Of a stretch of 21,819 nucleotides of DNA, positions 1 through 8,498 are shown piece after piece. Each line of letters begins with the position of its first letter. The stretch's first letter is position 1. The position numbers and the translations under genes were made by a program. The DNA is taken from IMG/VR virus record IMGVR_UViG_3300048590_001376; one strand, 5' to 3'. Origin of the DNA: a virus (lineage: Duplodnaviria > Heunggongvirae > Uroviricota > Caudoviricetes). Under the pieces are notes generated by a model. It searched no databases, was not told where the DNA came from, and was given only the letters and a program-made list of their open reading frames with translations.

Positions 1-867
1 ATGCAAACGACAACGGTTCGCATCTCAGATTTGCAAACTCATCCCCTTCAACAGCCGACGTATGGTGACCTTGCGGCTCATGAATTTGCAGCACTGAAGG
101 CAGACATCGCCCGTCGAGGAGTCCGCTCTCCGATTCACGTCACTCGGGCCGGGATGATCATCGACGGTCATCAGCGTGTTCGCGCTTGTCGCGAGCTTGG
201 AATTGAGGAGATCAGTGCCATCATCTGCGAGGAAGAGGGCCAGCCGGAGATTGATGAGAGCTTCGTTTTGGCGAATCTCGTGCGGCGTCAGCTGGACCCT
301 GTAGCCAAAGCGAAGGCCGTTCAGATGCTCGTGGACATCGAGCGTCGACGGATCAATGACGAAGATTCTCAAGAACCCGGCGATTTGCGCGATCGCATCG
401 CCAAGCATCTTGGGGGAAACATCTCGGGACGCACGGTGGATCGCCTCTTGCAGCTGGCGCGTTTACCCGCTCCGATCCATCAGGCCGTTTCAGCAGGGCA
501 TTTGCCGATGACGAAAGCCCTGCGGCTTCATCAGTGCTCGTCAGGCCAGTTGGAAATCGTCGCCAACCGCATTTCTGCGGGTGAGTCACCGCGTACTGTC
601 GTAGATTCGGTCCTTCCGCGCAAGAAGGCCGATCGACAGGAAGCCGAAGAAACGCCAGCTGTTGCGTATGCCATGCTGGTTGACTTCCTTGCCGAGAAGC
701 TGTCGTGCTTCGAGGCTCAACCGGAATCACTGGTCGGAACGGCGGGAGATCACGAAGCAACCGCCAACGTGTTGGACCGCTCAGCGCGGTTCCTGCATGT
801 GATGCGTGATCACGAGCAGGCTGCTCGCCAGCAGGCACTGCTCGATATTCAAGAGTTGCTGAGTTGA
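1..867 (+). CDS. ParB/Srx-like N-terminal domain protein with central HTH (288 aa)
   Basis: N-terminus VRISDLQTHP; ParB box GVRSPIHV...IIDGHQRVRACRELG (GxxRxxA); ANLVRRQLDPVAKAKAV; HTH-like LRDRIAKHLGGNISGRTVDRLLQL. Confidence 0.85.
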   Translation: MQTTTVRISDLQTHPLQQPTYGDLAAHEFAALKADIARRGVRSPIHVTRAGMIIDGHQRVRACRELGIEEISAIICEEEGQPEIDESFVLANLVRRQLDPVAKAKAVQMLVDIERRRINDEDSQEPGDLRDRIAKHLGGNISGRTVDRLLQLARLPAPIHQAVSAGHLPMTKALRLHQCSSGQLEIVANRISAGESPRTVVDSVLPRKKADRQEAEETPAVAYAMLVDFLAEKLSCFEAQPESLVGTAGDHEATANVLDRSARFLHVMRDHEQAARQQALLDIQELLS

Positions 868-934: not shown

Positions 935-2464
935 GTGATGTCTTCCAATCCCCCTCAAACACGAACGATTGCCTACCACCGCAGCACCTGTGCTGTCTCG
1001 CTGGCTCCCGAGGACTTGCAGCGTCTCGGCGGGGCCATCACCGTTCCGAAACGCGTGCCGAGAGCAGATCCGCTTCATGGATACGATGTGGTTGAGGCAC
1101 AGGAACCTTGGCTGGGAGGTGATCGTGTTCCGAATCTTGGTTTGCGTGAATTCCTGGCCTATCGGGCGATCCAGCGGGGACTCCAATTACAGGAAGTGGC
1201 GACGAACCAAATTGCGCCACTTCCCGCCCCTGCGTGCCGCAATCAACTCCTTTGGCCGAGCTGGATTGATTTCGTCCACCAGTATGAACTGGGGTTGGTT
1301 CGCATCTCCAACCAGGTTGATGTGCCCCAGATGATTGCCGAACTTGTGATCGCTTTTCCAGGGCGACGCATCATGGTTCTCGGAAAGGTCGCAACACTTC
1401 GAAGCCACTTTGCCTCATTGATGCGTCTTCTCCCGGCCGAATTCCGCAAAAACCGTCGCATGGCATTGGTGCATGCCGGAAGGCCGCTGAGGATCGAAGA
1501 TGACCATGAGTTTCCTCGATTGATCCTCTGCACTCCGACGGTGGCAGCAGACCTCGAATCCGAAAAGTGCGACATTGTTGTCATGCTCGACGCATTCGAG
1601 TGTCTGCACGAGCGAATGGCGTGGCCCTTGATCCAAATGGATGGGCGGTTCCGCCTGTTTGGACTGTTGCCCGCCAGTCGTGCGCCGAAGCCCTACGAAG
1701 CGGCTCGACTCCGTGTGACGTTCGGGTTTCGACAGATTGATCTGCTTGGGAAGGGCCGTGTCCGTCGAGATACCTCTTACTCGCTGGTGTGCCAAAGCGG
1801 AGAGGCCCCGCAAGGATCAGTCCTGGAGCATCCCGTTGTCGGTGGTCGTCGCACTCGCCCGTCCATTGCCCCCGTCCGTGCGTATGTCCACCACCACTAT
1901 CGAAACAACATGATTGCGCGTCTCGCCCGGAAGCTCCGGGGCGGCCAGCGGATCGAGAATCCTCGGTACAGTGAGATCGCGCGTTGGTGCCGTCTCCAAG
2001 TTCAGCGGCCCATGAGTGTCATGATCGTTGTGGATCGGCTCGACCACGCGGTCCTCCTGCACGCGCTGCTCAACGACTGGCCGATAGTCGCTGAACCGTC
2101 AAATCTGGACGGCATCCCCGCAACTGTCTGTCGCTGGATCAATCGCCGTATCTCGCAGTGGCTGCCGTGCCAGATCGTGGTGGCTGATGCGTTCCGAAGG
2201 ACGAAGGGACACCAGGTGGATGTCGTGATCTGGGCCAGCGGCGGGTCGATGGCCCAAATCCCTGAGGAATGGCTCTACACCCGCGAGGACGCAGGCCATC
2301 CGCTGCTGATCGTCGACTTTGTTGATGACTTCGCCCCGGATGCTCGGCGATTGAGTCGAAAGCGTGCCCAAGCTCTCGAAACCCGCGACATTTTCCGGTT
2401 CGGTCAATCACCCGTACTTGGTCGCATCCGCCAGTTTGAACGCCAGATCGGAGGGACACGATGA
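935..2464 (+). CDS. Degenerate (probably ATPase-dead) superfamily-2 helicase-like protein (509 aa)
   Basis: SF2 motif order is retained but catalytic residues are lost: no GxGKT (GLVRISNQVDVP), LILCTPT (Ib-like), DIVVMLDAFE (in place of DExH), RLFGLLPA (III-like), RNNMIA, VMIVVDRLDHAVLL (IV-like), VDVVIWASGG, LLIVDFVDD. No QxxGR motif VI. Confidence 0.6.
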   Translation: MMSSNPPQTRTIAYHRSTCAVSLAPEDLQRLGGAITVPKRVPRADPLHGYDVVEAQEPWLGGDRVPNLGLREFLAYRAIQRGLQLQEVATNQIAPLPAPACRNQLLWPSWIDFVHQYELGLVRISNQVDVPQMIAELVIAFPGRRIMVLGKVATLRSHFASLMRLLPAEFRKNRRMALVHAGRPLRIEDDHEFPRLILCTPTVAADLESEKCDIVVMLDAFECLHERMAWPLIQMDGRFRLFGLLPASRAPKPYEAARLRVTFGFRQIDLLGKGRVRRDTSYSLVCQSGEAPQGSVLEHPVVGGRRTRPSIAPVRAYVHHHYRNNMIARLARKLRGGQRIENPRYSEIARWCRLQVQRPMSVMIVVDRLDHAVLLHALLNDWPIVAEPSNLDGIPATVCRWINRRISQWLPCQIVVADAFRRTKGHQVDVVIWASGGSMAQIPEEWLYTREDAGHPLLIVDFVDDFAPDARRLSRKRAQALETRDIFRFGQSPVLGRIRQFERQIGGTR

Positions 2465-3690
2465 GTATCAGTGGATCTCCGACACGCAGGTTTGCTGACC
2501 GCCACTTTCAGCGGTCGTGCGAACCACGCCGCAGGCGGGAGCCTTATCGGGTACTTAATCCGGCGGAATTCGACTTGGCCAAATTCGCCAATGCGGACAA
2601 TCTCTACGTGGCGTTCCAGCAATTGGTGGACGAGGGTGGTCACGGCGCGGGGATTGATGGCTTTCGACCCGAGCATTTTTCCGATGCGGAACTCTCTCCC
2701 ATCCTGCGGAGTGTCTCGAAGGCTTTCGAGAAAGAGGACGATCAACCGATCGCTTATCGTCCTTATCCGACTCGCCGAATGGAAATTCCCAAGTCGGCGA
2801 CCAAGGTCCGTACCTTGGCTTTGCAGCGGTTCACCGATCGAGCAGTAGCGAAAGCTCTGATGAATTGCCTAACGCCCTTCTGGGAGCGGGTGATTAGACG
2901 ACGCAGTGTCTGGCAGATTTATGCCCAGCTCGACCGCGAGATTCGCCGTCGTCGAATCTACGTGCTGGCGATCGACGACATCCAAGATTGCTTTCCGAAC
3001 GCACCTCGCGAGGAAGTCCTTTACTGGCTCTTCCGTCATATCAATAACGAGGAATTGCTCGATCTCATCGAACAAATCGTCCTTGGCCATGAAGGCCAAG
3101 ATCAATTGACCGGCTTGGATCAAGGTTCGCCGTCCAGCCCGGTCGCGGTAGACGTGTTGCTCTACCACAGACTCGACAGCGAGTTGGAAACACTGTCGAG
3201 GAACACGCCGCAGTACCGCTACGTCGATAACCTGACGTATCTGTGCCGCGACGTCCGTGAGGCTGCCAGTGTGCTCGCGATTGCGCGGGAACTTGTTGAA
3301 CGCATCGGTTTCCGACTTAAAGGAACCGACGGTGATCCACAAGACCTTCGCGATCCGAGTTACAACCGAGTGATTCTGGGATTGATCCCGACATGGCAGA
3401 ACGGCCGTCTGTCTTTCTCGATCCCCCAGAAAGCCTTCGACCATTTGGAAGAAGGTTTCCGCTTTGCGAATTCAGCCGCGAGACCCTTGGACAACGCTCT
3501 TGGGCGTTGTCGAGGCTGGCTAAATTCACTCGGACCTGCCCTCACGAACGCAGTAACCCCGGAAGTAGTCAACCGTGTCGTCGACATGGCGCGCCTGGAA
3601 GGTTTCCGAAATGTGACCCGCAAGGACATGTTTCTGACAGCCGAGAAAGCGCGCAGAGCCTGGTGCCGAGTATTGGAAGGTGCCCGATGA
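2461..3690 (+). CDS. Group-II-intron-like reverse transcriptase with YVDN active-site motif, no endonuclease domain (409 aa)
   Basis: RT0 GAGIDG; RT1/2 KVRTLALQRFTDRAVAKAL; motif A YVLAIDDIQDCF; motif B GLDQGSPSSP; motif C YRYVDNL (3220-3231 TACGTCGATAAC = YVDN); RT7 ILGL; thumb-like CRGWLNSL. Start overlaps the upstream stop (ATGA). Confidence 0.9.
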   Translation: MSISGSPTRRFADRHFQRSCEPRRRREPYRVLNPAEFDLAKFANADNLYVAFQQLVDEGGHGAGIDGFRPEHFSDAELSPILRSVSKAFEKEDDQPIAYRPYPTRRMEIPKSATKVRTLALQRFTDRAVAKALMNCLTPFWERVIRRRSVWQIYAQLDREIRRRRIYVLAIDDIQDCFPNAPREEVLYWLFRHINNEELLDLIEQIVLGHEGQDQLTGLDQGSPSSPVAVDVLLYHRLDSELETLSRNTPQYRYVDNLTYLCRDVREAASVLAIARELVERIGFRLKGTDGDPQDLRDPSYNRVILGLIPTWQNGRLSFSIPQKAFDHLEEGFRFANSAARPLDNALGRCRGWLNSLGPALTNAVTPEVVNRVVDMARLEGFRNVTRKDMFLTAEKARRAWCRVLEGAR

Positions 3691-3699
3691 ATATGTCTA

Positions 3700-4215
3700 C
3701 GGATACGACCATTGGACCTGACATCGTTTCCTCCGAGACGTTTGTTGGCATTCCTCTTACTACTCCTTCTCGGTGCTGCCGCACACCGACGCCCCTCCGT
3801 TTCCGCGAGGGAATGTGGAAGAGTTATTCCACGAGTTTTTCGATGTTCCAGCGCGAACCAACGATTCAGCAAGGGAGTGAACGTCTGATGTAAGGCAACT
3901 CAGGTTTCTGACAGTTCAGATAGCCATCCGACAGATTGCAGGGCAGTCGCTGAAGGTGCTGGATCGTTCGATTCTCCACGTGGGTGGAGCGGACAATACC
4001 AAGCTGCCGCCGAGGAGGTTCCGTTTCCACGCAGTCACCTGGAATCGGTCACCACTTCGGAGGTTGGCTCTCAACCAGCACCCGCAAACCTCGTTCACAC
4101 ACCAGCCCATAATGGGTTGGCTTCACATTCATCCGTCATCGCTGCCAGGGAGTGCTTTGATGTTGGGCGCGAAGGAAATTCGATCGTGTCTCGCAAGAGA
4201 AAGCACCAATGGACC
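3700..4215 (+). ncRNA. Candidate structured non-coding RNA downstream of the RT
   Basis: Stems found by eye: 3749-3756/3807-3815; 3770-3775/3784-3789; 3815-3820/3827-3832; 11-bp 3860-3870/3958-3968; 3907-3911/3916-3920; 3974-3979/3984-3989; 4102-4109/4113-4120; TCTC-GCAA-GAGA GNRA hairpin 4189-4200. G.U pairs and the GNRA loop favour the + strand. Boundaries are approximate. Confidence 0.5.
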
Positions 4216-4242
4216 GCCACGCTTGTCCCGTGGGGTACACTG

Positions 4243-4383
4243 ATGGCGAACCCCAATCATCGGCATTTTGGCAAGACGCGGGAGCAACGCATCGACGTCG
4301 CAATTGCCATCATCCGCCAGACGCTGGTCGATTGGCTGGCCGATTTTACGGTGGTTGAGATGCCAGAAGTGCATCTCGTCTAA
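4243..4383 (+). CDS. Small hypothetical protein (46 aa, MANPNHRHFGK...) directly upstream of the recombinase
   Basis: ATG at 4243 inside ORF 4117-4383; protein-like amphipathic sequence; followed by hairpin AGCCGA-N7-TCGGCT. Confidence 0.4.
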   Translation: MANPNHRHFGKTREQRIDVAIAIIRQTLVDWLADFTVVEMPEVHLV

Positions 4384-4455
4384 GCCGACTGGCAATCGGC
4401 TGACGCATACCAGATCAATCAGATTGGGACCATCAACGAAGGAGTCAGCAACAGC

Positions 4456-6153
4456 ATGCGCAAGAGCAACGCCCAGATCATGAAGGCGAAGGATGCGGTC
4501 ACGCGAAAGTGTGGCCTTTACGGACGTGTCTCGACTTTGCGTCAAGCCAAGGTCGAAGAAGGTGGGTTGGACACCCAGTTCAGCTGCATGGAGAAGACGG
4601 TCGATTTCGAGAACGAGAAAGCGATCGGCGAAACATGGGAAATCGTCGACCGCTATCGGGAGGAGGGGCGGTCCGGGAAGGATCTGGAACGTCCTGAGTT
4701 CAAGCGGTTGATGGCAGACGTCCAGAGCGGTCGAATCAACACCGTGATCGTCTACAAGATCGATCGGATTACCCGCTCACTCCGCGACTTCTACACGCTT
4801 TGGGAGACGTTCGAGGAGTATGACGTCCAGTTCGTGTCGTTGTACGAGAAGTTTGACACGACAACGGCTGTCGGGCGAGCCATGCTGAAGCTCATTCTTG
4901 TCTTCGCAGAGCTTGAACGCGAACAGACGGCGGAGCGAACCGCCGCAACGATGCAGCATCGTGCCGAGCAGGGCCTGTGGAATGGCGGAGTTCGGCTGGG
5001 CTACGATCTCGATCCGAACAACAAGGGGGTATTGAAGGTCAATCCGGACGAGAAGGTCATCGTTGTGAACGATTTCTTCAAGAAGTGCCTCGAACTCGGA
5101 TCAGCAGGCAAAGTGGTCCAGCACCTGGCGAAGCAGGGGATTCGACGAAAGCAGTACACCAATCGCAACGGGAAGGTCGTCGGCGGAGGACCCTACTACA
5201 AGCAACCGGTCATGAACGTCCTCACGGACAAAGTCTATCTCGGCATGATCGTCCACAACGGCCAGGCATATCCCGGCCAGCACGAAGCGATCGTGGAGGA
5301 AGACCTGTTCATGCAGGTTCAGGATTTGATCCGGCGAAACTCCGAAACCCGCACGAATGCACTGGCTCAGGAAGAACACGTTTTCCTGCTGCAAGGACTC
5401 GCCCGATGCGGGAAGTGCGGCAGTTTCATGACTCCCAAATGGAGTTCCGGACGAGGTGGCGTGCGGAACTTCTACTACTGCTGCACCCGGCAGTCGCACA
5501 GCATGGGGACCGAATGCACGACTCCCTACGTGCCCGCCGGAACGATTGAGAATTTCGTGGTTGAACAGATCAGCGCGTGGGCCAAGGACCGTGACGAGAT
5601 CGAGCGGGCGGTTCAGGCGGCCTGCAAGTTTCGGGAGATTGAAGTCACCAACCTGACGCAGGAGCTGAGTGCAATCCGTGCCCGCTTACGCGAGACGCAG
5701 GCCGGATTGAGCCAACTGGTGACCGCGATTCAATCAGGAAAGAGCTTCCGAGCTGTGGAAGAACGGATGGAGGCTCTCGAACAGGACCGGACTGCGCTCG
5801 AAGAACGCATCAACCGCCTGGAACTGGAACGGAGCAGCAAAGAGCAGGAGACGCTGTCGTCGGACGTGATCGCCGAGACCTATTGCGATTTCCCGTTCAT
5901 CGTCAGCCGCTTGCGGCAGGAGGGCAACCTTCACGGCCTGAAAGACCTGCTCGCCTGCTATATCGCGGCGATTGACATCCATCAGGAAGAGGAGGACCCG
6001 AGCAGCGGCCACATGAACATCATGCTGTTCGAGGAGGAGCTTCCAGGCTGGAAACCCCATTTGACGCAACTCAATGGGGCGCAAGAAAAAACGCTCACGT
6101 TCCAGCCGTTAACCGGCTGGAACTGTGAGCGTGTGGAAAGGCTCCCCGACTAG
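4456..6153 (+). CDS. Large serine recombinase (resolvase + recombinase + zinc-ribbon + coiled-coil domains, 565 aa)
   Basis: Catalytic YGRVST; EEGRSGKDLERPEFKRLM; VYKIDRITRS; FAELEREQTAERT; Zn ribbon CGKCG...YYCC...C; coiled coil; GAAGGAG RBS upstream. Confidence 0.97.
   Translation: MRKSNAQIMKAKDAVTRKCGLYGRVSTLRQAKVEEGGLDTQFSCMEKTVDFENEKAIGETWEIVDRYREEGRSGKDLERPEFKRLMADVQSGRINTVIVYKIDRITRSLRDFYTLWETFEEYDVQFVSLYEKFDTTTAVGRAMLKLILVFAELEREQTAERTAATMQHRAEQGLWNGGVRLGYDLDPNNKGVLKVNPDEKVIVVNDFFKKCLELGSAGKVVQHLAKQGIRRKQYTNRNGKVVGGGPYYKQPVMNVLTDKVYLGMIVHNGQAYPGQHEAIVEEDLFMQVQDLIRRNSETRTNALAQEEHVFLLQGLARCGKCGSFMTPKWSSGRGGVRNFYYCCTRQSHSMGTECTTPYVPAGTIENFVVEQISAWAKDRDEIERAVQAACKFREIEVTNLTQELSAIRARLRETQAGLSQLVTAIQSGKSFRAVEERMEALEQDRTALEERINRLELERSSKEQETLSSDVIAETYCDFPFIVSRLRQEGNLHGLKDLLACYIAAIDIHQEEEDPSSGHMNIMLFEEELPGWKPHLTQLNGAQEKTLTFQPLTGWNCERVERLPD
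6086..6132 (-). terminator. Intrinsic terminator-like hairpin (18-bp stem, 1-nt bulge, 5-nt loop) followed by a T-run on the minus strand
   Basis: ACGCTCAC-GTTCCAGCCG (6091-6108), loop TTAAC, CGGCTGGAAC-T-GTGAGCGT (6114-6132); A-run 6086-6091 reads TTTTTT on the minus strand; begins 7 nt beyond the tRNA-like 3' end. Confidence 0.75.
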
Positions 6154-6898: not shown

Positions 6899-7729
6899 AT
6901 GACACTGGGCGACTTTGTGGCGTTGTACGCCAGCCAACGTGATATCGAGGCGGGAACCGTCGAACAGTTGCGGTACGCCGTCTTGTCGTTCGACCGATGG
7001 CTGAAGCGCGCTGCGACGCTACATGACTTATCGGATAAAAATGTCAACAACTGGATTATTGCCCGCATTGAGGCGGGCATTGCGCGAAAGACCGTCAAGG
7101 GTCAGCGGGGGGCAATCCTTAGCCTCTGGAGAGCTGCCACCGAGGAAGGGATGCTCGACACTGAGCCGAGCAAGATCAGGCCCGTCAAAGTGCCGATCGT
7201 CATGCCGGTCGCCTGGCAGAAGTCTCAGATCAAGTCGCTCTTGAAGGCTGCCGAAGCGGCGCCGGGCAGCTTTGCTTGCGGCATTAAGCGATCGAGCTAT
7301 CTGACTGCGTGGTTGCTCGTGGGCTACTACAGCGGATTGCGGCCGGGTGATCTGCTTGGCCTGACGAGCGACATGATCGATGACGACAGCCAGCTCGTGA
7401 AGACCCAGAAGAAGACTGGCTGGCCGGTTGTTCGGCCGTTGCCATCTGACGCCATGGCGGCCCTGGCCGCGATCAACTTTCGCGATCGTTCGCAGATTTT
7501 CCCTGTCCCTAAAAAGACGCTCGACGACTGGTGGAAGTGGCTCAAGCGCATTGCCGGCGTGCCGGGCTCGCCGAAGTGGATGCGGCGATCTGGCGCTACG
7601 CACTGCGAAGCGGAGCACCCCGGCTCGGCGATGCAGTTTCTGGGCCACAAAACCGCCGGATTGGCGTACAAACACTACGTCGATCCCAAGCAGCTCTGCC
7701 ACAAGCCGCCCTGTCCGCCGCCGCTGTAG
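6899..7729 (+). CDS. Tyrosine recombinase/integrase lacking an arm-binding domain (276 aa)
   Basis: Core-binding domain at the N-terminus; catalytic set SGLR(R), KTQKKT(K), KWMRRS (K-x-x-R for H-x-x-R), LGH, KHY(Y); RBS GAGAGGGA. Confidence 0.92.
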   Translation: MTLGDFVALYASQRDIEAGTVEQLRYAVLSFDRWLKRAATLHDLSDKNVNNWIIARIEAGIARKTVKGQRGAILSLWRAATEEGMLDTEPSKIRPVKVPIVMPVAWQKSQIKSLLKAAEAAPGSFACGIKRSSYLTAWLLVGYYSGLRPGDLLGLTSDMIDDDSQLVKTQKKTGWPVVRPLPSDAMAALAAINFRDRSQIFPVPKKTLDDWWKWLKRIAGVPGSPKWMRRSGATHCEAEHPGSAMQFLGHKTAGLAYKHYVDPKQLCHKPPCPPPL

Positions 7730-7741
7730 GCGAAATTGCGC

Positions 7742-7770
7742 TTGCTCTCGCTTGCGCCAGTGTCAAGAAT
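7742..7770 (+). promoter_or_regulatory. Possible sigma70-type promoter for the downstream moron gene
   Basis: TTGCTC-17 bp-AAGAAT in a relatively AT-rich gap; weak consensus match. Confidence 0.2.
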
Positions 7771-7812
7771 TGAATGCAGATGGATTAAATTCAGTATTGC
7801 CGGAGTCCCGCC

Positions 7813-8256
7813 ATGACACGCGCCCTCTTTCTGACTGTCGCCCTGACCATTGCCATCGCTTTCAGCTTCCATGCGGCTGCGGCCGTGGAGGTCGCTGACC
7901 TAAAATGGAGCGAATTTGTCCGCGACTGCGGCGTTAAGGCGCAGGAATCAAACAAGGTTCGATCGCAGAGCGTTTTCAAAAGCAAGTACGAGGGCAAGGT
8001 GATCGGCTGGTTTGGCACGGTCAACATGGTTCAAGAGCAGCCGTTGGGCGATGGTTATCTGATTAGCGTCACCATGAGACCCTCTGAGGCTCCAGTGACG
8101 CATTCGGACCTGAAATTATTCGTGCCGGAAAAACTCAAGGACCGCGTTCTGCCGCTCGATAAAGGCAACAAGATCGCCTTCATCGCCAGGATCACCACGC
8201 AAGGCGGCAGTATTCTCGATCACCAACTCGACTGCCTGCTGTTTGAGAAACGCTAG
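7813..8256 (+). CDS. Secreted hypothetical protein, possible OB-fold (147 aa)
   Basis: Signal peptide MTRALFLTVALTIAIAFSFHAAAA; KYEGKVIGWFGTV...KGNKIAFIARI pattern is reminiscent of secreted OB-fold proteins. Confidence 0.7.
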   Translation: MTRALFLTVALTIAIAFSFHAAAAVEVADLKWSEFVRDCGVKAQESNKVRSQSVFKSKYEGKVIGWFGTVNMVQEQPLGDGYLISVTMRPSEAPVTHSDLKLFVPEKLKDRVLPLDKGNKIAFIARITTQGGSILDHQLDCLLFEKR

Positions 8257-8498
8257 CGAGCCCCCCGCATCCACTTCTCGACGAACTCGCGGTATCGGCC
8301 AAGGCATTCGGGGTGAATCAAATTCTCAGCGAGTGCGTAGATGACCTTGCTGCCGTTGTCGACCGATTCGCCATGCACGATCGCGCCACGCATGCCAAGC
8401 AGTCGCATTTCTCGCCACTTGCCAAACACCATGGCGCGGACGACATAGCAACCCATTGGCTCGCGCTGACGAAACCGCCTTGGCAACCAGAGCATCAT
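8253..8498 (-). CDS. Hypothetical protein (81 aa), last gene of the minus-strand operon
   Basis: ATG at 8498 overlaps the upstream stop (ATGA); start moved from the ORF-track 8543. Confidence 0.55.
   Translation of the reverse strand: MMLWLPRRFRQREPMGCYVVRAMVFGKWREMRLLGMRGAIVHGESVDNGSKVIYALAENLIHPECLGRYREFVEKWMRGAR

Follow-up and report, generated by a model that had tools for sequence, protein, structure and literature searches.

Does the reverse transcriptase (RT) encoded in the IMG/VR virus record IMGVR_UViG_3300048590_001376 (Duplodnaviria; Heunggongvirae; Uroviricota; Caudoviricetes) have an RNA of its own, and how far does such an RNA extend? The 21,819-nucleotide (nt) stretch of DNA that we analysed, hereafter the window, opens with three co-oriented genes, for a ParB-like protein (1-867), a 509-amino-acid (aa) open reading frame (ORF; 935-2464) and the RT (2461-3690), and a gap of 765 nt (3691-4455) separates the RT from a serine recombinase. 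A first-pass annotation, made from the letters of the window, had flagged about 500 nt of this gap (3700-4215) as densely structured, non-coding and possibly the template or scaffold RNA of the RT. What stands of that proposal is a probable cognate RNA next to the RT gene, of ~100-130 nt and not 500. Coordinates are window positions throughout; homologous loci carry L numbers, G001 is the complete genome that carries both L004 and L006, and L007 comes from Maioricimonas sp. JC845, both being genomes assembled from isolates.

A conserved RNA element beside the RT gene

The conserved RNA element lies in the first ~200 nt past the RT stop, with its core at 3765-3866 on the + strand and its outer bounds perhaps at 3745-3895. 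It begins with hairpin P1, continues with a three-way junction made by P4 around P2 and P3, and finishes in an A-N-C-C-A tail (Table 1). The same plan can be read after the RT gene in the raw sequences of the homologous loci, as a tract of pyrimidines, a set of three hairpins and the box GYGCGA(G/A)CC, and homologues folded individually place hairpins at matching relative positions. A comparison of the individual helices showed that: 1) the second pair of P1 covaries between U-A and C-G (12 and 4-6 sequences, respectively). 2) P2 has compensatory changes in all seven of its model pairs, with one inner pair cycling through C-G, U.G and U-A. 3) The outer pair of P3 (3815/3832) is G-C in the window versus C-G in L018, its closest relative. 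4) P4 joins the linker that follows P1 to the GYGCG of the conserved GYGCGA(G/A)CC box, whose GCG provides the 3' strand; on the alignment A10 (see below) 85.7% of its cells are paired, and four of its five pairs show compensatory changes. Letters are best conserved in the loops and in the single-stranded tail. Boxes like those of the possible 3' extension at 3867-3895 recur in many loci, and RNAalifold predicts no helix there (alignment A8). Two further interactions were considered and dropped: a pseudoknot between the P1 loop and a GGCG box, which was looked for by eye and showed no covariation, and a helix that would close the element by pairing the 5' pyrimidine tract with a 3' GGAG box, which can be drawn in most loci, but whose sides are of low complexity and for which RNAalifold was negative. 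ARAGORN found no tRNA or tRNA-like gene in the window.

The element was recovered from 21 distinct loci with RT identities of 34-82%, and L027 has a second copy of it. It always lies on the RT strand, 60-90 nt after the RT stop; at L008 and L009, where a repeat array stands between, the distance is ~210-250 nt. An nhmmer profile likewise detects it only on the RT strand and directly downstream of the RT. Covariance models were seeded with 15 sequences (R1), with seven sequences of the distant subgroup only (R2) and with six close relatives (R3). R1, the first of these and MAFFT-based, had P2 misaligned and was used for searching, not for pair counts; it finds its seeds together with L008, L006 and L004 and, weakly, L012 and L001. 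R2, seeded without the window or its subgroup, recovers 3767-3866 of the window at E=2.4e-5 along with 11 other non-seed sequences, and R3 recovers 11 sequences of the distant subgroups. A model search of 3600-4500 with filters off returned one intact copy only, at 3765-3866, and when five carrier genomes were searched whole, matches were obtained in four, always at RT loci. On A10, the alignment made with R3, 91.5% of cells pair and 20 of the 23 pairs show compensatory changes, which none of 500 shuffles matched; with the partners slid by 1-3 columns, 30-57% of cells pair, and A6, the R2 alignment, gives similar figures. The covariation among homologous loci that the first-pass annotation had proposed to look for is thus present. 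Its suggestion of an Rfam scan brought nothing: no Rfam family, the group II intron models (domain V/VI) included, matched the window at the gathering threshold or 3600-4500 at E up to 10, and the RNA class is hence absent from Rfam.

The RNA also follows the RT in inheritance. The distance from the RT stop to the element is kept, whereas the distance to, and the identity of, the downstream gene vary. In G001 a tract of 88.7% identity (L004:6171-7386 versus L006:6093-7319) runs from about RT codon 57 to the exact end of the RNA match, while the genes upstream are far more diverged between the two loci; the tract is a gene conversion that ends at the 3' edge of the RNA. L027 contains a tandem second module (7624-8435), made up of a 5'-truncated RT (206 aa, starting at the QGSP motif) and its own copy of the RNA. 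This second RT is 53% identical to the RTs of L020 and L007 versus 41% to the adjacent first RT, and its RNA is closest to that of L007 (75%), so that both share the L007/L020 lineage and differ from the full cassette directly upstream. Conversion tract and truncated copy therefore indicate that the 3' part of the RT gene and the RNA travel as a unit.

As a separate observation, a partial, P1/P2-like model match at L001:9091-9177 lies 2.7 kb past the RT, near the contig end, where the usual distance is ~70 nt; this suggests an insertion between RT and RNA at that locus. Repeat arrays were also noticed near the element. At L009:7110-7310 and L008:~3010-3190, which are paralogous loci of one metagenome-assembled genome (MAG), ~21-25 tandem 8-nt units (GGGTCTTA, GGGTCTCA or AAGGTCTC) span the last RT codons to just before the element. 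One variant of the L009 repeat has a reverse complement, GAGACCC, that is also met in P3 of that locus, in its loop and 3' strand; the chance expectation for such a 7-nt match is ~10%, and it was not used. At L004 (Planctomycetales bacterium 10988), and at this locus only, a CRISPR-like array of 33 copies of a ~36-nt repeat, GTGCTCAACGCCTGACGGCGTCATTGAATGAATCAC, spaced at 70-76 nt, follows ~255 nt after the RNA element (L004:7642-9950); the 3' end of this repeat loosely resembles the GAAUGAA/CUGAAUCAC boxes found in some RNA tails.

Table 1. Positions of the genes, of the conserved RNA element with its parts, and of the other features described in the text
Feature	Position	Strand	Basis and remarks
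ParB-like protein	1..867	+	N-terminal ParB/CTPase-type domain and helix-turn-helix (HTH) region; first gene of conserved cassette
509-aa SF2-helicase-fold protein	935..2464	+	3' end overlaps RT start via ATGA
Reverse transcriptase, 409 aa	2461..3690	+	RVT_1 E=5.6e-11; start overlaps preceding stop (ATGA)
Pyrimidine-rich tract before P1	3750..3771	+	present in most homologous loci (alignments A2, A8; raw sequences)
RNA core, covariance-model match	3765..3866	+	R1 79.1 bits; R2 E=2.4e-5; R3 98.5 bits
P1 hairpin GUGC-UGCC-GCAC (3773-3776 / 3781-3784)	3773..3784	+	loop U-R/C-C-C
P4 long-range helix (3787-3792 / 3851-3855, A3789 bulged)	3787..3855	+	RNAalifold on unfitted A8
P2 hairpin (3793-3797 / 3807-3811)	3793..3811	+	5 bp in window, 5-8 bp elsewhere
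P3 hairpin GUGGAA-GAGUUA-UUCCAC (3815-3820 / 3827-3832)	3815..3832	+	94-96% of cells paired
Single-stranded tail A-(A/G)-C-C-(A/G), in the window AACCA	3856..3860	+	directly 3' of P4 (A3, A6, A10)
12-bp long-range helix with nested hairpins	3860..3968	+	in sequence, chance-level, not conserved
Possible 3' extension: purine box AAGGGAGUG and CUGAUG box	3867..3895	+	nhmmer match reaches 3892
Putative degenerate second copy of RT 3' end and RNA	3896..4160	+	collinear repeats, offsets 274-276 and 224
24-nt block TCCGTCATCGCTGCCAGGGAGTGC	4132..4155	+	identical in L018, surroundings poorly conserved; not present in loci farther removed
Small gene, 46 aa from ATG	4243..4383	+	probable; upstream of serine recombinase, outside RNA element
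Large serine recombinase	4456..6153	+	Pfam Resolvase, Recombinase, Zn_ribbon_recom

Possible roles of the element

The conservation of the element, its covariation, its fixed position and strand and its co-inheritance with the RT lead us to favour, as the probable explanation, an RT-cognate RNA that serves as scaffold or template. Transcription, binding by the RT and any synthesis of complementary DNA (cDNA) are the parts of this reading that we infer. The RNA would be made as the 3' part of the transcript of an operon of the ParB-like gene, the 509-aa ORF (SF2-like, as described below) and the RT gene. The RT, which we call G2L5-like for reasons given below, would bind this RNA as the RTs of group II introns, retrons and DRT (defense-associated reverse transcriptase) systems bind theirs, and the resulting RT-RNA ribonucleoprotein would be the working unit. 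Within it the RNA may be a scaffold, or may both prime and template a short cDNA; the start of such a cDNA, if there is one, would most plausibly lie near the conserved tail or the variable linker between P3 and P4.

Several observations weigh against an RT-cognate RNA, or against parts of the case for it. The A6 and A10 alignments were fitted to models, which inflates pairing; on unfitted MAFFT alignments RNAalifold predicts P1 (A2) and all of P1-P4 (A8, six close sequences), and this result together with the reciprocal recovery by R2 and R3 indicates that the covariation signal is real. The thermodynamic stability of the core is ordinary (z = -0.9 for 3755-3895, + strand). G.U and A.C combinations over all model pairs number 25 versus 19, which is indecisive for the strand. 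Nearly all of the A.C cells belong to edge pairs or come from the two sequences whose P2 is bulged, and inner-stem positions cycle through C-G, U.G and U-A (7 G.U, 0 A.C) and through G-C, G.U and A-U; this cycling fits a plus-strand RNA, and since the overall counts are indecisive the strand call is taken from the inner-stem positions only. P4 is weaker in the distant subgroup (e.g. L010). Some relatives have no model match: L016 has a terminator directly after the RT, and L005/L019 and L017 show only look-alikes seen by eye. Finally, the RT has DN and not DD at motif C, and may be incapable of polymerising, in which case only a scaffold or regulatory role would be left for the RNA. Active polymerases of non-segmented negative-strand RNA viruses have GDN in place of GDD, whereas HIV-1 RT with its second aspartate mutated (D186N) is inactive; the DN of this RT is therefore compatible with either state.

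Alternatively, the element could be a cis-regulatory RNA of the 3' untranslated region (UTR) or intergenic space, namely a terminator, attenuator, processive-antitermination or stability element, with control of read-through from the operon into the xis-int or serine recombinase genes, or of mRNA decay, as its job. In many loci it stands with the RT operon on one side and the recombination module on the other, which agrees with this. A U-run follows P3 in the window, L018, L007 and L010, and owing to it a simple scan flags P3 as terminator-like. Further, strong intrinsic terminators stand 0-41 nt past the element at L013:7122-7160, L014:~7283-7320 and L021:~1554-1595, and the transcript may have its 3' end there; no strong terminator follows the element in the other 16 loci scanned. 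However, the U-run after P3 is not conserved, yet beyond it come the conserved P4 and tail; the spacing that is held tight is that to the RT stop, and not that to the changing downstream genes; and both the conversion tract and the truncated duplicate couple the RNA to the RT, not to the genes downstream. We consider a regulatory role unlikely.

An improbable reading places the function at the level of DNA, in that the ParB-like protein would bind the element or use it like a centromere, or a recombination site or the integrative element's origin would lie there. ParB proteins depend on a site in cis, and the same cassette encodes a ParB-like protein and itself belongs to integrative elements; P1 is a short interrupted palindrome, and the overall counts of G.U and A.C leave room for such a role. 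Against this, the element keeps its pairing while the sequences of its helices change, which is unlike the evolution of protein-binding sites; the inner stems pass through G.U intermediates that have no A.C counterparts; conservation is highest in the loops and the single-stranded tail; and the element lacks symmetry and occurs on the RT strand in every case. A DNA-level role is hence disfavoured; for the structured replication origin that the first-pass annotation offered as its alternative, the analysis brought up nothing in favour.

There is very little to recommend a small protein translated by coupling from an ATG that overlaps the RT stop. Such an ATGA overlap is present in about half of the loci (the window, L002, L013, L014, L017, L018, L022, L023, L025, L027, L030 and L031), gene callers give ORFs of 65-68 aa, and in some frames the pyrimidine tract would yield hydrophobic runs. 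However, the conserved motif is read in three different frames among the loci, a sign that the nucleotides themselves are what is conserved. Substitutions that distinguish the window from L018 are spread over the codon phases as 10/14/13, with no third-position bias, and a 1-nt indel separates these closest relatives; the lengths and ends of the ORFs differ, and covariation accounts for the conservation. On these frames and codon phases the small-ORF reading was rejected. In their own right, the ORFs that gene callers start at the overlapping ATG range over 41-87 aa and their products are not conserved; translation running into the RNA element could be relevant for its folding.

The remainder of the flagged interval

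That the whole of 3700-4215 is one large structured RNA of 500 nt is hardly credible, and largely refuted by the observations that follow. The stems listed in the first-pass annotation are all present in the sequence, and CTCCAC/GTGGAG, CCAGCCCA/TGGGTTGG and the CUC-GCAA-GAG hairpin also appear in minimum free energy (MFE) folds; they amount, however, to no more than chance, and none belongs to the conserved element. The long-range helix given there as 11 bp exists, with 12 bp and one G.U (3860-3871/3957-3968), but is at chance level: among dinucleotide shuffles of 3691-4455, 27% have a helix of 11 bp or longer. On the + strand most sub-windows fold like their shuffles (z = +0.1 for 3896-4040 and +0.3 for 4041-4185, as well as the value given above for the core), so that folding energy neither supports nor refutes the core. 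In favour of a larger structure, the domain 3855-3975 reaches z = -2.0 and the whole 765-nt gap z = -2.9 on the + strand and -2.2 on the - strand, the figures for the gap coming from 20 shuffles only.

In L018, the closest relative with downstream DNA (RT 77% identical), 3694-3859 is kept at 84% and 4098-4155 at 80%, whereas 3860-4097, with the long helix and its nested stems, cannot be aligned, so that the interval as flagged is conserved in part. A further point for a larger structure is the 24-nt block at 4132-4155, which is identical in L018; the more distant loci share nothing beyond ~3895. The near-identical contigs L032-L035 differ by only three single-nucleotide polymorphisms (SNPs) over 3691-4296, per base as few as in the RT gene, and they are therefore uninformative on constraint.

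The rest of the interval has an explanation of another kind. Repeats at offsets of 274-276 join 3627-3688 to 3901-3964 and 3869-3879 to 4144-4154, and a repeat at offset 224 joins 3796-3820 to 4020-4044. The corresponding diagonal band holds 13 6-mer matches versus a background of 0.7 +/- 1.5, and one frame of 3902-3966, read directly, gives FLT...A.R...VL(D/E), which resembles the C-terminus of the RT. Taken singly, a local alignment of this putative duplicate falls short of significance (z ~2), and only the collinear diagonal signal reaches it; a model search of 3880-4460 with filters off finds no second intact RNA copy. On the basis of the collinear repeats, the diagonal signal and the residual RT-like frame we therefore read 3896-4160 as a decayed duplicate, and 3870-4215 as a whole as this remnant of the RT 3' end and RNA plus spacer, its hairpins being at chance level. 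The motif AGGGARTG, reported three times (3808, 3872 and 4147) and found at all three positions, would owe its repetition to the same degenerate tandem duplication.

The RT, its cassette and related systems

Among NCBIfam models the best match of the RT is TIGR04416, at 90 bits against a cutoff of 300, covering model positions 2-245 of 353 and leaving the maturase part unmatched; its best profile matches in the PDB are group II intron RTs (E ~1e-24). Motif C reads YVDN, and D256 and N257 are invariant in 23 homologues. The ~30 homologues all come from Planctomycetota, including a Gimesia MAG (L016) at 30% identity; the viral contigs searched contained no relatives. These features recall the class G2L5, which was defined by a DD-to-DN change and a ~500-aa N-terminal extension (Simon & Zimmerly 2008, PMC2602772), has Planctomyces (Gimesia) maris and Blastopirellula marina among its listed members (Toro & Nisa-Martinez 2014, PMC4244168) and is located in mobile DNA (PMC8934634). 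It has been an orphan RT class since 2008, with 'few clues' to function; the papers on G2L5 that were consulted describe no RNA partner, ParB-like gene or helicase fold, and later papers add no function. The likeness extends to: 1) a group-II-like RT domain without an intron ribozyme, no intron RNA model matching here; 2) the change of the active-site DD to DN, here in YVDN; 3) planctomycete hosts; 4) a partner of ~500 aa on the N-terminal side; and 5) a setting in mobile DNA. It ends at the form of the partner, which here is a separate ORF, translationally coupled through the ATGA overlap, and not an N-terminal fusion. A search for longer, fused SF2-RT relatives found none, which is weak evidence. 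On a further trait of the class, a conserved maturase (domain X) motif, the RT offers only the TIGR04416 match, which stops at model position 245. From the described hallmarks and the lack of fused forms in that search we therefore call the family G2L5-like, as resembling the class in its described features.

RT systems with a cis-encoded RNA are already known, in retrons and in DRT2, DRT3, DRT9 and DRT10. In the class 2 UG/DRT systems DRT2, DRT3, DRT9 and DRT10/UG17 a cis-encoded non-coding RNA of ~100-300 nt, defined by covariation, lies by the RT gene (PMC13174585, PMC12632851). The element shares with this class its place next to the RT and its stem-loops around short single-stranded segments; as in DRT3, the RNA is downstream of the RT, and RT_UG17 is the best DRT-type match of this RT in PADLOC. 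At 46.9 bits, however, that match is below the generic RT model (90 bits), and the RTs of group II introns, at 90 bits, are closer to this RT than UG17 is, at 47 bits. Also, the partners are ParB-like and SF2-like, neither SLATT nor any other effector of DRT systems is present, the active site has DN, and the RNA has no sequence or Rfam similarity to those of the class, which template a defined, tandem-repeat cDNA. Retrons similarly have a dedicated, structured RNA beside the RT that co-evolves with it; theirs is upstream, closed by flanking a1/a2 inverted repeats and with a branching G, whereas the present RNA is downstream and of another architecture, the upstream side of the RT being taken by a coupled ORF. 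The scores of retron RT models also stay far under the cutoffs (32.7 versus 235 bits). Group II introns have the closest RT domain, and their RTs work only when complexed with their own RNA around the ORF. Here, in contrast, no domain V/VI or other Rfam intron match was obtained at E up to 10, a coupled protein gene takes the upstream place of intron domains I-III, and the maturase part of TIGR04416 goes unmatched.

A 3' location of the RNA is familiar from yet other elements: the RT of the Mauriceville retroplasmid initiates at 3' tRNA-like/CCA sites, and the RTs of non-LTR (long terminal repeat) retrotransposons recognise the 3' UTR. The present cassette resembles these in having a structured element at the 3' end of the RT's own predicted transcript, in the closing helix followed by single-stranded N-C-C-A, and in the 5'-truncated RT-plus-RNA copies downstream in two lineages. 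It differs in lacking a tRNA-like gene (ARAGORN) and any target-site features that we could see, and in its 1-2 copies per genome, always with the full cassette. A bolder version of the RT-cognate reading, which we think improbable, would make the cassette a working retroelement of a new kind, whose DN-type RT, like the RTs of retroplasmids and non-LTR elements, starts cDNA at the junction-plus-NCCA 3' end of its own transcript, the DNA target or product being dealt with by the SF2-fold and ParB-like proteins. Recombination of incomplete cDNAs into the locus would then give rise to the 5'-truncated RT-RNA copies (in the lineage of the window and L018, and in L027), the tract in G001 and the low-divergence block 1600-4296 described below. 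What differs from the known systems as a whole is the ParB-like partner and the SF2 partner without ATPase motifs, the DN site and the recombinase setting.

The cassette of ParB-like, SF2-like and RT genes is conserved across the homologous loci. The ParB-like protein matches Pfam ParB_N (E=1.2e-4) and TIGR00180 parB_part (E=1.1e-11, under that model's cutoff), and a ParB-like gene also stands upstream in L026, L027, L032 and L036. The 509-aa protein, whose gene sits upstream of the RT in ~22 loci, has no Pfam match. Its AlphaFold2 model (predicted local distance difference test, pLDDT, 87.9; predicted template modelling score, pTM, 0.86) finds XPB, UvsW and Snf2-type proteins as best matches in Foldseek, with E down to 1e-11, and thus a fold of helicase superfamily 2 (SF2); neither the Walker-A Lys nor DExH is among its conserved columns (alignment A7). 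Beyond the serine recombinase, a tyrosine recombinase is found farther along the window, and L006, L007, L010, L011, L013 and L023 have HTH_17 (Xis-like) genes and/or tyrosine integrases at the position of the serine recombinase. The cassette therefore adjoins the module by which integrative elements recombine; no recombinase is present among the genes examined downstream at L030, L003 and L027. The probable small gene at 4243-4383, in an ORF open from 4117 and with no Pfam match, differs from L033 by seven SNPs, of which five are at third codon positions and only two change a residue; it may encode a recombination directionality factor or regulator.

Comparison with strain-level metagenome contigs gave two further observations on the cassette. 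A hypervariable patch at 1354-1561 of the SF2-like gene (residues ~146-200) carries ~70 substitutions in 200 nt relative to L032-L034, which outside it are ~99.7% identical to the window over 1600-4230. We considered and rejected a diversity-generating retroelement (DGR) here, as the substitutions are of all types and not adenine-specific, and no template-like repeat of the patch exists elsewhere in the window; the patch may be a recombination tract, or reflect diversifying selection on the surface of RecA-like domain 1. Secondly, L032-L035 show only 7-10 SNPs over the block 1600-4296, which begins in the middle of the SF2-like gene and takes in the RT, the RNA and the decayed copy. Divergence is several percent in the flanks, namely in the ParB-like gene, in the initial third of the SF2-like gene, over 4297-4452 and in the gene for the recombinase, a pattern that suggests recombination breakpoints near 1561-1600 and 4296.

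RTs with the hallmarks of G2L5 are now linked to an RNA of ~100 nt that is supported by covariation, a first handle on the class, and likewise to a helicase-fold partner without ATPase motifs, a ParB-like protein and a recombinase-adjacent site in planctomycete integrative elements. Should the RT be active, it would exemplify an RT that works with DN at motif C; should it be inactive, it would be a case from bacteria of an RT fold kept only as an RNA-binding scaffold. In both cases the RNA belongs to a class that is not in Rfam.

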